DNA of 14,890 nt from Escherichia coli (GTDB taxonomy: Bacteria > Pseudomonadota > Gammaproteobacteria > Enterobacterales > Enterobacteriaceae), in assembly GCF_003334255.1 (NCBI RefSeq), contig NZ_QOWU01000078.1; one strand, written 5' to 3'. Both the position numbers and the translations under genes were made by a program. The notes below the pieces were generated by a model. The model was not told where the DNA came from, made no database searches, and was given only the letters and a program-made list of their open reading frames with translations. This document shows positions 1,805 through 14,740 of this stretch, piece after piece (positions within the stretch are counted from its first letter, which is position 1; each line of letters begins with the position of its first letter).

Positions 1805-2560
1805 TTAACGCGTTCGCTGCGAAAGCACCTGCTGCTTATCCAGCTTTTGCACCAGCGGCTGCACCACTTTATCCCCATGCTGACCAAAGTATTGATACAG
1901 CGTATCGGACGCACTTTTGGTCAGCACCATAATCTCAATGCGCCGGTTGCCCGCGCTTTGCGGATTTTTGGAATCCAGCAGCATCTGGTCCGCCATTGCG
2001 CTTACCTGCATCACTTTATCTTCCGGCATTCCGGCCTCTTCCAGCACCCGACGAGCCGAAAGCGCGCGGTCACCCGAAAGGTTCCAGTTGTTGTAGATAT
2101 TGTTTTTGTAGGCCATCGCATCGGTATGCCCGGTAATAATAATTTTATTATCGAGCGAGTCGAACACTGGCGCGAGCTCCACCAGCAGCGTTTTAAAGAA
2201 CGGCATAATCTTCGCGCTGCCGCGTTCAAACATATTGCGGTTCTGGTCGTCTTTAATCAGCACGCGTAATCCCTGGGGAACAATCTCCATCTCCAGATTC
2301 GCTTCCATATGCGCATCACGGGCAATGGTGTTGATACTGGTTGCCAGCTCACCAAGCTCGGTGGCGGATTTCTTCTTCAGCAGCGCCGTTTTCTCATTCA
2401 CATCACGCGCTTTTTTCTCCGTCTCTTCCGGCACCGCCACGGTGGCAGGTTTTGGCGGATGAGACGGGCTGATTTTATTTAACGGCGACAGCCCACCACC
2501 GTTAAAAATCGACTGCCCGTGCAGCGCGGCGATAATGCTTTCACGCTCGGATTTACTGAC
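1805..2560 (-). pseudogene. lafU: lafU remnant (MotB-like lateral flagellar motor protein, N-terminally truncated Flag-2 relic)
   Basis: The translation has a MotB/OmpA-like C-terminal domain (NWNLSGDRALSARRVLEE...RRIEIMVL) but lacks the N-terminal transmembrane helix. The six-frame ORF extends to 2695 only by reading antisense through lfhA. Position between lfhA and PdinB matches K-12. Confidence 0.75.
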
Positions 2561-4274
2561 GCTGTTGACAATCAACTTTATTGTCGTCACCAAAGGGGCC
2601 GAGCGTATTTCCGAGGTTTCTGCCCGCTTTACCTTAGACGCGATGCCCGGCAAACAGATGGCGATTGACGCCGATCTTAACGCCGGATTGATCAACCAGG
2701 CGCAGGCGCAAACCCGGCGTAAAGATGTTGCCAGCGAGGCCGATTTCTACGGCGCGATGGACGGGGCATCGAAGTTTGTGCGCGGGGACGCCATCGCCGG
2801 GATGATGATTCTGGCGATCAACCTGATCGGCGGCGTCTGTATCGGGATCTTCAAATACAACCTGAGCGCCGATGCTGCCTTCCAGCAGTATGTGCTGATG
2901 ACCATCGGCGACGGCCTGGTGGCGCAGATCCCTTCCCTGCTGCTCTCCACCGCGGCGGCGATTATCGTCACCCGCGTCAGCGACAACGGCGATATCGCCC
3001 ATGACGTGCGTAACCAGCTGCTGGCAAGCCCGTCGGTGCTCTACACCGCCACCGGGATTATGTTCGTGCTGGCGGTGGTACCGGGAATGCCGCACCTGCC
3101 GTTTTTGCTGTTCAGCGCCCTGCTTGGTTTTACCGGCTGGCGGATGAGCAAACAGCCGCTGGCGGCGGAGGCGGAAGAGAAAAGCCTCGAAACGCTGACC
3201 CGCACCATCACCGAAACCAGCGAGCAGCAGGTCAGTTGGGAAACCATTCCGCTGATCGAGCCTATCAGTTTAAGCCTCGGTTACAAACTGGTGGCGCTGG
3301 TGGACAAAGCACAGGGTAACCCGCTCACCCAGCGGATTCGCGGCGTGCGGCAGGTGATTTCTGACGGCAACGGCGTGCTGCTGCCGGAGATCCGCATTCG
3401 GGAAAACTTCCGCCTTAAGCCCAGTCAGTACGCCATTTTCATCAACGGCATAAAGGCTGATGAAGCGGATATTCCGGCGGATAAACTGATGGCCCTGCCC
3501 TCCAGCGAAACCTACGGCGAGATTGACGGCGTGCAGGGGAACGACCCGGCGTACGGGATGCCGGTCACCTGGATCCAGGCGGCGCAGAAAGCGAAGGCGC
3601 TGAATATGGGGTATCAGGTGATCGACAGCGCCAGCGTGATCGCTACCCATGTAAATAAGATTGTGCGCAGCTATATTCCTGATTTGTTTAACTATGATGA
3701 TATTACGCAGTTGCATAACCGTTTATCGTCGACGGCACCGCGTCTGGCGGAAGATTTGAGCGCGGCGCTCAATTACAGCCAGTTGCTGAAAGTGTACCGG
3801 GCGCTGCTGACCGAAGGCGTTTCCCTGCGCGATATCGTCACCATCGCCACCGTGCTGGTCGCCAGTAGCACGGTGACGAAAGATCATATTCTGCTGGCGG
3901 CCGATGTGCGCCTGGCATTGCGGCGCAGCATTACCCATCCGTTCGTTCGCAAGCAGGAGCTGACGGTGTATACGCTGAATAATGAGCTGGAAAATCTGCT
4001 GACCAACGTGGTGAATCAGGCGCAACAGGGCGGGAAAGTGATGCTCGACAGCGTGCCGGTCGATCCGAATATGCTCAACCAGTTCCAGAGTACGATGCCA
4101 CAGGTGAAAGAGCAGATGAAAGCGGCGGGGAAAGACCCGGTGCTGCTGGTGCCACCGCAGCTGCGCCCTTTGCTGGCGCGTTATGCAAGGTTGTTTGCGC
4201 CGGGGCTGCATGTGCTGTCGTATAACGAAGTGCCGGATGAGCTGGAGTTGAAGATTATGGGGGCGTTGATGTAA
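2535..4274 (+). pseudogene. lfhA: lfhA remnant (FlhA-family flagellar export apparatus protein, N-terminally truncated Flag-2 relic)
   Basis: 579-aa ORF with FlhA-family motifs (VVTKGAERISEVSARFTLDAMPGKQMAIDADLNAGLI) that begins inside the conserved transmembrane region, so about 100+ N-terminal residues are missing. Length matches the recalled K-12 lfhA fragment. Confidence 0.8.
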
Positions 4275-4297: not shown

Positions 4298-4487
4298 GCC
4301 GGATGCGGCGTGAACGCCTTATCCGTCCTACCGTTCAGGCACAAGTTTGTAGGCATGATAAGACGCGCCAGCGTCGCATCAGGCATCTGCGCATAACTGC
4401 CGGATGCGGCATAAACGCCTTATCCGGCCTACCGATCCGGCACAAGTTTGTAGGCATGATAAGACGCGCTAGCGTCGCATCAGGCAT
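4298..4487. repeat. BIME: four REP (repetitive extragenic palindromic) units in alternating orientation
   Basis: GCCGGATGCGGCGTGAACGCCTTATCCGTCCTAC (4298-4331) and GCCGGATGCGGCATAAACGCCTTATCCGGCCTAC (4399-4432) alternate with GTAGGCATGATAAGACGCGCCAGCGTCGCATCAGGCAT (4349-4386, 4450-4487). These are canonical E. coli REP sequences. Confidence 0.85.
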
Positions 4488-4497
4488 CTGCGCACAA

Positions 4498-4995
4498 TTA
4501 TGAAATGATACGCTCCCCGGCACTAAAATCCGTTACGTCCCCCGCCCAATCGATGGGATATAACCCTCGCGCGACATCGCGATGGAACGTTGAGAATGGC
4601 CAATCACTCACTTGCTTTACCCAACCATGCTTTACTGGATTTATATAAATATAATCAACATGATGCCTATAATCTTTGGTATTGCGGATGGCGTGCTCCC
4701 AAAAACGTGGTTGCCAGATATTTTTCAATCCACAAGCATGGGTAAATTGCTTTTTAATTTCCCGCCAGCGCGAGGAAAAATCATCATCGCCTTCAGGTAA
4801 TGTCCAGATACAGTGCATATGCTCTGGCAAAACGACCCAGGCGTTGATTTCAAAAGGCCTGTCTCGCTTAACTTTAATAATGGCGTGACGGAGCATCTGG
4901 TACTGGGTGGTCAAAAGTTGGCTTCGACGATTTCGTAAATTCACCGTGAAAAACCATGTTCCCCCCTTGATGTAATAACGACGATATTCAGACAT
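4498..4995 (-). CDS. rayT: REP-associated tyrosine transposase RayT (TnpA-REP, HuH family; IS200/IS605-like)
   Basis: 165-aa ORF matching recalled RayT/YafM (MSEYRRYYIKGGTWFFTVNL...), with the HuH motif (PEHMHCIW) and REP arrays on both sides. Confidence 0.9.
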   Translation of the reverse strand: MSEYRRYYIKGGTWFFTVNLRNRRSQLLTTQYQMLRHAIIKVKRDRPFEINAWVVLPEHMHCIWTLPEGDDDFSSRWREIKKQFTHACGLKNIWQPRFWEHAIRNTKDYRHHVDYIYINPVKHGWVKQVSDWPFSTFHRDVARGLYPIDWAGDVTDFSAGERIIS

Positions 4996-5090: not shown

Positions 5091-5174
5091 GTAGGCATGA
5101 TAAGACGCGCCAGCGTCGCATCAGGCACCTGCGTACAACTGCCGGATGCGGCGTAAACGCCTTATCCGTCCTAC
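5091..5174. repeat. REP pair (BIME) on the other flank of rayT
   Basis: GTAGGCATGATAAGACGCGCCAGCGTCGCATCAGGCA (5091-5127) and GCCGGATGCGGCGTAAACGCCTTATCCGTCCTAC (5141-5174), in inverted arrangement relative to the 4298-4487 array. Confidence 0.8.
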
Positions 5175-8368: not shown

Positions 8369-8503
8369 GTCGGATGCGGCGTGAACGCATTATTCGGCCT
8401 ACGGTTCGCGTACAGATTTGTAGGCATGATAAGACGCGTCAGCGTCGCATCAGGCATCAGCGCACAAATGCCGGATGCGGCGTAAACGTCTTATCCGGCC
8501 TAC
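8369..8503. repeat. BIME: three REP units between yafJ and gmhA
   Basis: GTCGGATGCGGCGTGAACGCATTATTCGGCCTAC (8369-8402), GTAGGCATGATAAGACGCGTCAGCGTCGCATCAGGCAT (8420-8457) and GCCGGATGCGGCGTAAACGTCTTATCCGGCCTAC (8470-8503). Confidence 0.85.
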
Positions 8504-8510
8504 GCCAGAC

Positions 8511-9089
8511 TTACTTAACCATCTCTTTTTCAATCAACTGGATCAGGATATGGATCACTTTAATGTGAATCTCCTGAATGCGGTCGGCATAACCAAAGTG
8601 CGGTACGCGAATTTCGATATCCGCCGTGCCAGCCATTTTGCCGCCGTCTTTACCGGTCAGGGTGATCACTTTCATTCCCTTCTCACGCGCCGCTGCGATC
8701 GCTTTGATCACGTTTGCAGAGTTACCGGAGGTGGAGATCCCCAGCAGTACATCGCCTTCGCGACCTACCGCTTCAACGTAGCGGGAGAAAATATCATTGA
8801 AACCGAAATCATTACCGACGCAGGAAATATGACTAACGTCAGAAATAGCAATCGCCGGGTAGCCCGGACGGTTTTCACGGTAGCGACCGGTCAACTCTTC
8901 GGCAAAGTGCATAGCGTCGCAATGGGAACCGCCGTTGCCGCAGGAAAGCACTTTGCCACCGGCTTTAAAGCTGTCTGCTAACAGGACCGCCGCGCGCTGA
9001 ATGGCGTGAATATTGGCGTCATCTTTTAAAAAGTTAGCCAGCGTTTCCGCCGCTTCGTTCAGTTCGTTACGAATAAGATCCTGGTACAT
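8511..9089 (-). CDS. gmhA: Phosphoheptose isomerase (sedoheptulose-7-phosphate isomerase), LPS core heptose biosynthesis
   Basis: The ORF 8511..9122 contains [20 protein letters not shown]... from codon 12 (192 aa). The SIS-domain motif ([16 protein letters not shown]) is present. Confidence 0.9.
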
Positions 9090-9290
9090 GAGGATATCCT
9101 TCAGCATAAATGTAATAGACAAAATGCAGTGTACCGGATACCGCCAAAAGCGAGAAGTACGGGCAGGTGCTATGACCAGGACTTTTTGACCTGAAGTGCG
9201 GATAAAAACAGCAACAATGTGAGCTTTGTTGTAATTATATTGTAAACATATTGCTAAATGTTTTTACATCCACTACAACCATATCATCAC

Positions 9291-9307
9291 AAGTGGTCAG
9301 ACCTCCT
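9291..9307. promoter_or_regulatory. Candidate FadR operator upstream of fadE
   Basis: AAGTGGTCAGACCTCCT matches the FadR consensus AACTGGTCNGACCTGTT at 14/17 positions, about 20 bp upstream of the fadE start. Confidence 0.55.
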
Positions 9308-9328
9308 ACAAGTAAGGGGCTTTTCGTT

Positions 9329-11773
9329 ATGATGATTTTGAGTATTCTCGCTACGGTTGTCCTGCTCGGCGCGTTGTTCTATCACCGCGTGAGCTTATTT
9401 ATCAGCAGTCTGATTTTGCTCGCCTGGACAGCCGCCCTCGGCGTTGCTGGTCTGTGGTCGGCGTGGGTACTGGTGCCTCTGGCCATTATCCTCGTGCCAT
9501 TTAACTTTGCGCCTATGCGTAAGTCGATGATTTCCGCGCCGGTATTTCGCGGTTTCCGTAAGGTGATGCCGCCGATGTCGCGCACTGAGAAAGAAGCGAT
9601 TGATGCGGGCACCACCTGGTGGGAGGGCGACTTGTTCCAGGGCAAGCCGGACTGGAAAAAGCTGCATAACTATCCGCAGCCGCGCCTGACCGCCGAAGAG
9701 CAAGCGTTTCTCGACGGCCCGGTAGAAGAAGCCTGCCGGATGGCGAATGATTTCCAGATCACCCATGAGCTGGCGGATCTGCCGCCGGAGTTGTGGGCGT
9801 ACCTTAAAGAGCATCGTTTCTTCGCGATGATCATCAAAAAAGAGTACGGCGGGCTGGAGTTCTCGGCTTATGCCCAGTCTCGCGTGCTGCAAAAACTCTC
9901 CGGCGTGAGCGGGATCCTGGCGATTACCGTCGGCGTGCCAAACTCATTAGGCCCGGGCGAACTGTTGCAACATTACGGCACTGACGAGCAGAAAGATCAC
10001 TATCTGCCGCGTCTGGCGCGTGGTCAGGAGATCCCCTGCTTTGCACTGACCAGCCCGGAAGCGGGTTCCGATGCGGGCGCGATTCCGGACACCGGGATTG
10101 TCTGCATGGGCGAATGGCAGGGCCAGCAGGTGCTGGGGATGCGTCTGACCTGGAACAAACGCTACATTACGCTGGCACCGATTGCGACCGTGCTTGGGCT
10201 GGCGTTTAAACTCTCCGACCCGGAAAAATTACTCGGCGGTGCAGAAGATTTAGGCATTACCTGTGCGCTGATCCCAACCACCACGCCGGGCGTGGAAATT
10301 GGTCGTCGCCACTTCCCGCTGAACGTACCGTTCCAGAACGGACCGACGCGCGGTAAAGATGTCTTCGTGCCGATCGATTACATCATCGGCGGGCCGAAAA
10401 TGGCCGGGCAAGGCTGGCGGATGCTGGTGGAGTGCCTCTCGGTAGGCCGCGGCATCACCCTGCCTTCCAACTCAACCGGCGGCGTGAAATCGGTAGCGCT
10501 GGCAACCGGCGCGTATGCTCACATTCGCCGTCAGTTCAAAATCTCTATTGGTAAGATGGAAGGGATTGAAGAGCCGCTGGCGCGTATTGCCGGTAATGCC
10601 TACGTGATGGATGCTGCGGCATCGCTGATTACCTACGGCATTATGCTCGGCGAAAAACCTGCCGTGCTGTCGGCTATCGTTAAGTATCACTGTACCCACC
10701 GCGGGCAGCAGTCGATTATTGATGCGATGGATATTACCGGCGGTAAAGGCATTATGCTCGGGCAAAGCAACTTCCTGGCGCGTGCTTACCAGGGCGCACC
10801 GATTGCCATCACCGTTGAAGGGGCTAACATTCTGACCCGCAGCATGATGATCTTCGGACAAGGAGCGATTCGTTGCCATCCGTACGTGCTGGAAGAGATG
10901 GAAGCGGCGAAGAACAATGACGTCAACGCGTTCGATAAACTGTTGTTCAAACATATCGGTCACGTCGGTAGCAACAAAGTTCGCAGCTTCTGGCTGGGCC
11001 TGACGCGCGGTTTAACCAGCAGCACGCCAACCGGCGATGCCACTAAACGCTACTATCAGCACCTGAACCGCCTGAGCGCCAACCTCGCCCTGCTTTCTGA
11101 TGTCTCGATGGCAGTGCTGGGCGGCAGCCTGAAACGTCGCGAGCGCATCTCGGCCCGTCTGGGGGATATTTTAAGCCAGCTCTACCTCGCCTCTGCCGTG
11201 CTGAAGCGTTATGACGACGAAGGCCGTAATGAAGCCGACCTGCCGCTGGTGCACTGGGGCGTACAAGATGCGCTGTATCAGGCTGAACAGGCGATGGATG
11301 ATTTACTGCAAAACTTCCCGAACCGCGTGGTTGCCGGGCTGCTGAATGTGGTGATCTTCCCGACCGGACGTCATTATCTGGCACCTTCTGACAAGCTGGA
11401 TCATAAAGTGGCGAAGATTTTACAAGTGCCGAACGCCACCCGTTCCCGCATTGGTCGCGGTCAGTACCTGACGCCGAGCGAGCATAATCCGGTTGGCTTG
11501 CTGGAAGAGGCGCTGGTGGATGTGATTGCCGCCGACCCAATTCATCAGCGGATCTGTAAAGAGCTGGGTAAAAACCTGCCGTTTACCCGTCTGGATGAAC
11601 TGGCGCACAACGCGCTGGTGAAGGGGCTGATTGATAAAGATGAAGCCGCTATTCTGGTGAAAGCTGAAGAAAGCCGTCTGCGCAGTATTAACGTTGATGA
11701 CTTTGATCCGGAAGAGCTGGCGACGAAGCCGGTAAAGTTGCCGGAGAAAGTGCGGAAAGTTGAAGCCGCGTAA
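9329..11773 (+). CDS. fadE: Acyl-CoA dehydrogenase FadE (beta-oxidation)
   Basis: The ORF 9251..11773 contains [24 protein letters not shown]... from codon 27 (814 aa). A Shine-Dalgarno sequence (AAGGGG) lies about 8 nt upstream of the ATG at 9329. An acyl-CoA dehydrogenase core follows the N-terminal membrane segment. Confidence 0.95.
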
Positions 11774-13253: not shown

Positions 13254-14390
13254 CTACGAAAGCCCGCTCCCCGCAAGGACTGACGCCAGGTAGTTTCTGT
13301 CCATGGCTGCTTTTCGCATCTTACGTCTTAACCCTGCCTTGAATACCTTCTCATTCGTCAAAATATTAATAGCAATGTGCCGTATCCCTGAAAATAATTC
13401 TGCTGCGTTTCCTCTTCTTATTTTGTAGTCGTCTTCATTCATTACCACGTCCAGACGCCTGTGCAGCTTATTCTCCACGTGCCAGTGGTTTCGGATTGCT
13501 GTGGCGAACTTCTCTGCGGTTAAATCAGCAGAACTGATATAATATCTGACCGTCATTTCGAGCTCTTTCTTTTGTTCTGCTATTATGGACCGAAAGGAGA
13601 CTGCCACGCATAATTTCTTCAGCCCTTTCCATTCAAACGTGAAATCAATAAGTTCATCAGGGACATCGCAAACAATATGAAGACGGATTTCTTCTCTGCC
13701 GTGACTCTTTTCACTCATTGCGTAACTGTCATGCTCTGGATTATTTAATTCTTTCAGCGGAAATTTTTCCTCAAAGGCTTTATTTAGCCGCCCCTGGTTT
13801 CCTTTTACCGCGAATAAATAATCACCTCCCTGTTTTTGTATCTTCTCTGCAATATCTTTCTGGCAACCCATCGCATCAGTTGTGATGATTTTTCCTTTAA
13901 TATCCAGCATGTTAAGAAGTTCAGGGATAGCTGTAATCTCATTGGATTTCTCATCCGTCCTGATCTGTCCGATGACCAGACTGTGCATTGTTGAGAACGC
14001 ACTAATGACATGAATCGCTCCCTTGCGGCGACTCTTGTCATAAGAATGCCGGAGTGTTTTTCCATCAATTGCGATGACGTCTTTATCATCTGAAGTATGG
14101 CAATCTCGCATCCAGTTAATAAAGCACTCGTGAAATTTTGAAGGACTGATACAGGATACAACTCTGGCGATGGTATCGTGAACAGGAATACCATTTTCAA
14201 AATCACCATATTGTTTTAAAAAATCGAGATGTGTTTCCCCAAAATCCTCTATATCTTCCCAGCCTTCTGCACCAGAAATAACGGCACAAATAGTCAACAG
14301 TAGAATATCCGATAATTTATGTTCCACTTTCCAGGCTTGTCTGTAATCGGGGATAATAGAAATATGTTCCATCAATTTTTTAAGTTCCAT
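13254..14390 (-). CDS. ISAs1-family transposase (H-repeat-associated ORF-H protein), apparently intact
   Basis: 378-aa ORF closely resembling E. coli H-repeat proteins (YhhI/YdcC/YbfD family). The K-12 equivalent position is recalled to hold only a short remnant (yafF). The IS ends were not delimited. Confidence 0.85.
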
Positions 14391-14488: not shown

Positions 14489-14534
14489 GCGAATTATTTA
14501 GTACAAAAAATCAGCGTTACGTGATCTTTCCCTG
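14489..14534. repeat. Direct repeat copy 1 (~46 bp)
   Basis: GCGAATTATTTAGTACAAAAAATCAGCGTTACGTGATCTTTCCCTG. Near-identical copy at 14741-14787. Confidence 0.6.
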
Positions 14535-14740
14535 CCCCTGCGCTCACTACCATGGCTCTTTACCACAGCAGCCGGGGTTGTTTGGGACCGACTTCCGACA
14601 GCAGATCCCGGTGGGCCTGCCACCATCTCTTCACAAGCTTATGCTTATTACATGCAAAACGTCCCGTTTTGCATCTTTGTGCCTACGGCACACCGGTGAT
14701 CTTTCCCTGATGAGGGATATATTAACTATTGAACATTAGC

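Follow-up and report, generated by a model that had tools for sequence, protein, structure and literature searches.

Expression of fadE, which encodes the acyl-CoA dehydrogenase FadE, is directly repressed by FadR via a site in the fadE promoter (review PMC9329746, citing Campbell & Cronan 2002). In the Escherichia coli chromosome, a 17-bp palindrome lies between the divergent genes gmhA and fadE, and it raises two questions: whether this palindrome is the FadR operator, and how it is positioned relative to the promoter on which FadR would act. We addressed both questions in a window of 14,890 bp, which is the whole stretch of DNA analyzed, and all positions given below are positions in that window.

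A FadR box 21 nt upstream of fadE

The box, the genes on either side of it, and the sequence between the box and the fadE start codon are arranged as follows.

9291–9307, strand ".", FadR operator (very probable), the 17-bp imperfect palindrome AAGTGGTCAGACCTCCT; from sequence reading, consensus, matrix, and orthologs
9294–9303, strand ".", perfect palindromic core TGGTCAGACC; exact match to TGGTCnGACC
9329–11773, + strand, fadE coding sequence, acyl-CoA dehydrogenase of 814 aa beginning MMILSIL; open reading frame, RefSeq "acyl-CoA dehydrogenase FadE" in MG1655
8511–9089, − strand, gmhA (lpcA) coding sequence, the divergent neighbor; RefSeq annotation transferred from MG1655
9314–9319, + strand, putative Shine-Dalgarno-like AAGGGG; 9 nt 5′ of the fadE ATG

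FadR has a published 17-bp palindromic consensus, aaCTGGTCnGACC(T/A)Gtt (review PMC9329746), with which the box 5′ of fadE agrees at 14 of 17 positions. Its core, TGGTCnGACC, is perfect, and the three mismatches all lie outside this core, at positions 3, 15, and 16, where the box has G, C, and C and the consensus has C, G, and T. A first-pass annotation, made from the sequence alone, had reported a 14/17 match about 20 bp from the fadE ATG; our recount returned the same score, and we measured 21 nt between the box and the ATG at 9329. GGAG- or GGGAG-type motifs are found in fadE orthologs at the place equivalent to that of the AAGGGG motif. A 501-bp segment surrounding the box has 100% identity with E. 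coli K-12 MG1655, and of 5426 complete E. coli genomes, 5424 contain it. We conclude that 9291–9307 is almost certainly the known FadR operator of fadE, which is established biology and nothing new.

The box is not explained by chance or by RNA structure

A 17-mer that deviates from its consensus at three positions might be a chance resemblance without any regulatory role, and we weighed this possibility using counts within the window, a position-specific matrix, and orthologous loci. When up to three mismatches to the FadR consensus were allowed, the fadE box was the sole match on both strands of the 14,890-bp window, and the exact core TGGTCnGACC occurred there once. Shuffled windows gave an expectation of 0.09 matches per window, with at least one match in 13 of 200 shuffles; this frequency and the three deviating positions are what speaks for chance. 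However, the match in the window sits precisely 5′ of a fad gene, and because the gmhA–fadE spacer (∼240 bp) makes up only about 1.6% of the window, a chance match at that very place is far less likely still.

As a check, the first-pass annotation had proposed a FadR matrix scan. We trained the matrix on seven other proven probes (fadL 1 and 2, fadD 1 and 2, fadBA, fabA, and fabB; PMC4259882), leaving fadE out, and symmetrized it, which is justified because the FadR homodimer binds a palindrome. The symmetrized seven-site matrix ranked the fadE box first in the window, at 13.9 bits versus 7.5 bits for the next best site, with a per-position probability of ∼5e-6; the score falls inside the leave-one-out range of proven FadR sites (−0.4 to 18.7). 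The non-symmetrized seven-site matrix gave 8.6 bits on the − strand (third in the window) and 5.0 bits on the + strand (13th). This version is overfit and penalizes the + orientation because all seven training sites have C at position 3, and its result is the weakest part of the site statistics.

For comparison among species, one genome per species was scanned with the first 400 FadE residues, which yielded 80 loci, 79 of them usable, from Enterobacterales, Vibrio, Aeromonas, and relatives. A box matching the consensus at 14/17 positions or better was present within 300 bp 5′ of fadE at 77 of the 79 loci versus 1 of 790 control 300-bp segments taken from the same loci. Plesiomonas is an exception, retaining the core only (GTCAGGTCAGACCTCTG), and the sole locus with no FadR-like box (at least 12/17) within 1.5 kb upstream of fadE was that of Arsenophonus nasoniae (L060), an insect symbiont. 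The E. coli-like group comprises 30 sequences (the window, L001–L028, and L065; some 20 genera), 29 of which have the identical 17-mer, and the box of E. albertii differs from the E. coli 17-mer at the central N alone. Serratia, Yersinia, Pantoea, Erwinia, Photorhabdus, Proteus, and others have the box AACAGGTCAGACCTCT(T/G), and Vibrio has AACTGGT(T/A)(A/T)GACCTCTT. Six loci also had 13/17 matches ∼1.2 to 1.5 kb upstream of fadE, which we rejected as FadR sites and treated as chance because they lack the core and are nearly the same sequence from one of these loci to another.

At the 48 loci outside the E. coli-like group, the box stands out as conserved against variable sequence on both sides: it has 1.67 bits per column versus 0.22 in the 30 bp before it and 0.33 in the 25 bp after it. 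These per-column values are somewhat too high, since the best motif match served as the anchor at each locus. Among 75 distinct orthologous rows, the core-flanking G, T, A, and C columns reach 1.9 to 2.0 bits, and the central N column ranks among those with the lowest conservation in the box alignment. Position 15 of the box (window 9305) is C in all orthologs (2.0 bits), where the FadR consensus has G. This invariant non-consensus C and the control-segment count are both free of the anchoring bias. Of 5425 E. coli records, 5380 have at least 99% identity over the 45 bp surrounding the box. Finally, a fadE_200-lacZ reporter carrying ∼200 bp upstream of the ATG (window ∼9129–9328) is induced by oleate and responds to deletion of fadR, being derepressed in the fadR mutant (bioRxiv 10.1101/2024.10.18.618624). 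A chance origin is effectively refuted by the control-segment conservation count, and we assign it next to no probability. The proposal in the first-pass annotation that fadE belongs to the fad regulon is supported both by the conservation of the box in three gammaproteobacterial orders and by the literature.

The invariant C at position 15 could also be read at the level of RNA, where CUCCU in the right arm of the box (ACCTCCT/ACCTCTT) would pair with AGGGG of the Shine-Dalgarno sequence and limit translation, leaving the FadR match secondary. In line with such a role, every ortholog has C at this position despite the G of the FadR consensus, a terminator scan returned a 5-bp stem CTCCT...AGGGG (9303–9319) that is part of the minimum-energy fold, and CUCC or CUCU can pair with the GGAG-type ribosome-binding sites of the orthologs. 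However, the fold, at −11.0 kcal/mol, compares with a shuffled mean of −12.0 kcal/mol (z = +0.36), and 117 of 200 shuffles were at least as stable. An anti-Shine-Dalgarno role would also leave unexplained why the left arm and the symmetry of the palindrome have been conserved to the same degree, and among taxa the ribosome-binding site lies anywhere from 18 to >100 nt from the box. We therefore rejected the hairpin at 9303–9319 as the primary explanation, since it is no more stable than shuffled sequence, and we consider control of fadE by this pairing very unlikely.

A putative proximal promoter upstream of the FadR box

We next consider where the FadR operator stands relative to the start of fadE transcription. 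In the review, the FadR site overlaps a transcription start that is known from genome-wide dRNA-seq only, and it is presented as a puzzle how FadR and ArcA both repress fadE from "rather distant" sites (PMC9329746). The relevant features on the 5′ side of the box are the following.

9251–9256, + strand, putative −35 element TTGCTA of the proximal fadE promoter; conserved pattern in 62 of 79 loci
9274–9279, + strand, putative −10 element TACAAC of the proximal fadE promoter; cTA.Aac island, 23 genera
9229–9260, + strand, published ArcA-P site, three direct repeats with 11-bp spacing (TTGTAATTATATTGTAAACATATTGCTAAATG); Park et al. 2013, Table S4
9232, − strand, mapped gmhA (lpcA) transcription start; Kim et al. 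2012, supplementary table, 243400
9218–9222, + strand, conserved TGTGA, a candidate CRP half-site; at least 90% conserved, 23 genera

An alignment of 23 genera shows conserved islands 5′ of the box at 9217–9222 (tTGTGA), 9229–9238 (gTTGTAATTa), 9242–9247 (TGTAAA), and 9250–9258 (aTTG.TAAa), the last followed by a variable 17-bp spacer and the island cTA.Aac at 9273–9279. Between cTA.Aac and the FadR box lie 4 to 15 variable bp, with a mode of 11. Stated as a pattern, TTG[AC]TA-N16-18-TA[ACT]A[ACT][ACT] is found 4 to 15 bp 5′ of the box at 62 of 79 loci, 61 of them with a spacer of 17 bp. This conserved −35/N17/−10 pattern favors a proximal fadE start. Judged from the sequence pattern, the proximal promoter would initiate near 9286 and place the box at ∼+6 to +22.

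A simple sigma-70 consensus scan of 9050–9400 called no promoter; it missed TACAAC because the final C fails the T6 rule of the scan. We keep the proximal promoter as putative because that scan was empty and the −35 element coincides with ArcA repeat 3, and also because the gmhA promoter overlaps the same block and Park et al. imply a fadE start near 9225. The overlap with ArcA repeat 3 could instead account for the conservation of the −35 element.

Park et al. 2013 (Table S4) place the ArcA-P site of fadE at genome positions 243372–243403 (PMC3798270), which convert to window 9229–9260 (genome = 252632 − window). Its repeats, TTGTAAT, TTGTAAA, and TTGCTAA, are strongly conserved across Enterobacterales. 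With the proximal promoter, ArcA-P would span −57 to −26 and cover the −35 element, and both FadR and ArcA would be in classical repressor positions. Such a geometry would therefore answer the question raised in the review about the FadR and ArcA sites.

The two published placements of the fadE start disagree by ∼60 nt, one at ∼9225 and the other in the region of ∼9286. Were the start near 9225, the fadE transcript would have a leader of ∼104 nt and FadR, bound at ∼+67 to +83, would be a roadblock to elongating polymerase and would not occlude the promoter; in a variant of this arrangement, both fadE promoters may exist. The distal position is consistent with Table S6 of Park et al. 2013, which puts the ArcA site at +4 to +35 (PMC3798270) relative to a start from EcoCyc or Kim et al. 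2012, and with the work of Sedlyarova et al. 2016, who treat the fadE leader as having a putative ArcZ site and Rho antitermination (summary in PMC12360218), a treatment that calls for a long leader. The review itself calls for clarification of the fadE start sites (PMC9329746), but it also has, from dRNA-seq, the FadR site overlapping the start, and the −35/N17/−10 pattern is conserved in 62 of 79 loci directly 5′ of the box. In contrast, the would-be distal −10 element, AACAAT (9213–9218), lacks conservation beyond the E. coli-like clade and is accompanied by no recognizable −35 element. As for Kim et al. 2012, their table gives the lpcA start at 243400, with a printed 51-nt sequence that is the reverse complement of window 9232–9282. 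This gmhA start, on the other strand at 9232, is alone in the region, and we found no fadE start in that table; nor did the Cappable-seq supplement have anything at 24332x–24337x. Taken together, we regard a distal start as unlikely and prefer the proximal promoter as the probable reading. In both geometries the box would lie downstream of the promoter and act negatively.

The conserved TGTGA at 9218–9222 also sits at the implied distal fadE start (∼9225). Its sequence makes it a candidate CRP half-site, and the corresponding 22-mer would be centered ∼61 bp upstream of the putative proximal start, which is a class I position; the second CRP half-site is poor.

Comparison with other FadR operators

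The E. coli fad operators (fadBA, fadL O1/O2, fadD O1/O2, fadH, fadM, and fadIJ) are, like the fadE box, 17-bp imperfect palindromes around TGGTCnGACC. In each case the regulated gene is a β-oxidation gene that is co-regulated by ArcA, and the operator sits at its promoter or shortly downstream, as the fadE box probably does too. The fadE region has a single box, whereas fadL and fadD have two each, and the fadE box departs from the fad-operator consensus at positions 3, 15, and 16. The sites at which FadR is an activator (fabA, fabB, and iclR) share with the fadE box the protein and the motif family, but they are upstream of the −35 element of the regulated promoter, whereas the fadE box is downstream of the putative −10 element, in the position of a repressor site.

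LldR and PdhR as possible users of the FadR box

Among the papers searched in full text, the 17-mer was printed only in PMC10272880, where it is labeled an LldR box. This raised the possibility that the box is a shared operator, used in vivo by LldR (lactate) and possibly PdhR (pyruvate) together with FadR, such that fadE would integrate organic-acid and fatty-acid signals and the "activation" by LldR could be competition with FadR, the stronger repressor. The LldR box AAnTGGTCnGACCAnTT and the PdhR box AATTGGTnnnACCAATT have their length, their symmetry, and a TGGT...ACCA skeleton in common with the fadE box. However, LldR and PdhR act physiologically on lactate and pyruvate genes, their effectors are lactate or pyruvate and not acyl-CoA, and their binding at fadE is weak and in vitro.

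The published data on LldR bear on this possibility from both sides. For the fadE/gmhA peak, the LldR gSELEX study lists the reverse complement of the box, AggaGGTCtGACCAcTT, as a 12/14 match to the LldR box (PMC10272880); the entry in its Table 1, AGGAGGTCTGACCACTT (12/14), is the reverse complement of window 9291–9307 and is an in vitro listing. Probes of the new LldR targets gave LldR–DNA complexes in gel shifts, fadE mRNA was >2-fold up on LldR overexpression and down in the lldR mutant (PMC10272880), and the two LldR boxes reported for fadL have exactly the sequences of the fadL probes FadR1 and FadR2 (PMC10272880; PMC4259882). Yet the LldR complexes needed 20 to 320 pmol of protein per 0.5 pmol of probe, the LldR peak at fadE was 7.3 versus 62.9 at lldP, and FadR is mentioned nowhere in PMC10272880. 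For PdhR, there is a weak gSELEX peak in the fadE/gmhA spacer (243432), fadE mRNA drops in the pdhR mutant, and a hand count gives the FadR box a score of 10/14 against the PdhR box. In the PdhR paper, however, the box credited with the peak is a different one, at window 9165–9181, which is an 8/14 match and is not conserved even in E. albertii; by the same hand count, the FadR box is the better PdhR-box match of the two. Furthermore, the FadR box tracks fadE across taxa, as expected of a core member of the FadR regulon.

Given that the LldR paper never mentions FadR and that these sibling regulators share a subfamily and nearly the same half-site, the simplest reading of these data is that LldR and PdhR cross-recognize FadR operators in vitro when protein concentrations are high. 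We consider use of the box by LldR or PdhR in vivo distinctly unlikely, somewhat more so than a distal fadE start. The sequence at 9165–9181 (AGGTGCTATGACCAGGA), which is "box 2" in the LldR and PdhR papers, was also considered as a second FadR-like box and rejected, as it matches the FadR consensus at 11/17 and has 5 differences in E. albertii.

Other features of the window

Several features elsewhere in the window are recorded here as observations in their own right. At its right end, the window departs from MG1655 and contains an intact ORF for a 378-aa ISAs1-family transposase (13254–14390, − strand; NCBIfam NF033564, 407 bits), the MG1655 copy of which is truncated; a group II intron D1-D4 fragment lies at 14504–14624 (− strand; Rfam RF01999, 81.8 bits). 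Toward the left end, an ORF of 514 aa at 106–1650 (− strand) occupies the place of dinB in MG1655; it weakly resembles large serine recombinases of the XisF type, scoring 51 bits where the curated cut-off is much higher. An element has probably been inserted beside lafU in this strain.

An FlhA homolog at 2535–4274 (+ strand) is truncated at its N terminus, covering profile positions 114 to 677 of 678, and corresponds to the flhA pseudogene adjoining lafU in the MG1655 annotation. Because this pseudogene is annotated next to lafU, the truncated homolog suggests a lateral-flagellar remnant. There are three naRNA4 matches (RF02564, 73–77 bits), at 4352–4429, 5094–5171, and 8423–8500, all on the − strand, and two of them flank the ORF at 4498–4995, which is rayT (REP-associated tyrosine transposase) in MG1655.

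Proposed mechanism and meaning

In the mechanism we propose, FadR, a GntR-family winged-helix homodimer, would use the 17-mer as the operator for repression of fadE. When long-chain fatty acids are absent, the FadR dimer would sit on the palindrome with one monomer on each TGGTC/GACC half-site and, bound immediately downstream of the fadE promoter, would keep RNA polymerase from initiating or from leaving. Long-chain acyl-CoA (≥C14) would then bind the C-terminal domain of FadR and move the recognition helices apart, and acyl-CoA-bound FadR would leave the DNA, allowing fadE to be transcribed. We infer the exact repressor geometry at fadE; the allosteric release and the regulation of fadE by FadR come from the literature, in which acyl-CoA of ≥C14 at the C-terminal domain alters the spacing of the recognition helices and the DNA is released. 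The review credits both FadR binding and its release by long-chain acyl-CoA to Campbell & Cronan 2002 (PMC9329746). In crystal structures, seven N-terminal FadR residues touch the DNA (PMC4259882), and fadE of Shewanella is also a predicted FadR target (PMC4537474).

The FadR box is centered ∼67 bp upstream of the gmhA start (9232, − strand), which itself lies inside the ArcA/−35 block, and gmhA adjoins fadE in the divergent orientation at 78 of 79 loci (Enterobacterales, Vibrio, and Aeromonas), with spacers of ∼210 to 570 bp. As a speculation, and one that we hold to be slightly less probable still than joint use of the box in vivo, FadR, LldR, and perhaps PdhR might compete on the fadE and fadL boxes, with the "activation" by LldR and PdhR being anti-repression through displacement of FadR, and the box could also couple β-oxidation to LPS heptose synthesis. 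The coupling to gmhA is raised because the box is ∼67 bp from the gmhA start and because the gene pair is conserved across three orders; we know of no effect of FadR on gmhA.

FadR regulation is in routine use in fatty-acid biosensors and biofuel engineering, and confirming the FadR operator of fadE brings no new biology. What the analysis adds concerns the surroundings of the operator and its reading in the literature. The sites published as LldR "targets" at fadE and fadL are the FadR operators themselves. In addition, the conservation footprint 5′ of the box supports a proximal fadE promoter at which the positions of FadR and ArcA would make mechanistic sense, a question that was flagged in the 2022 review.
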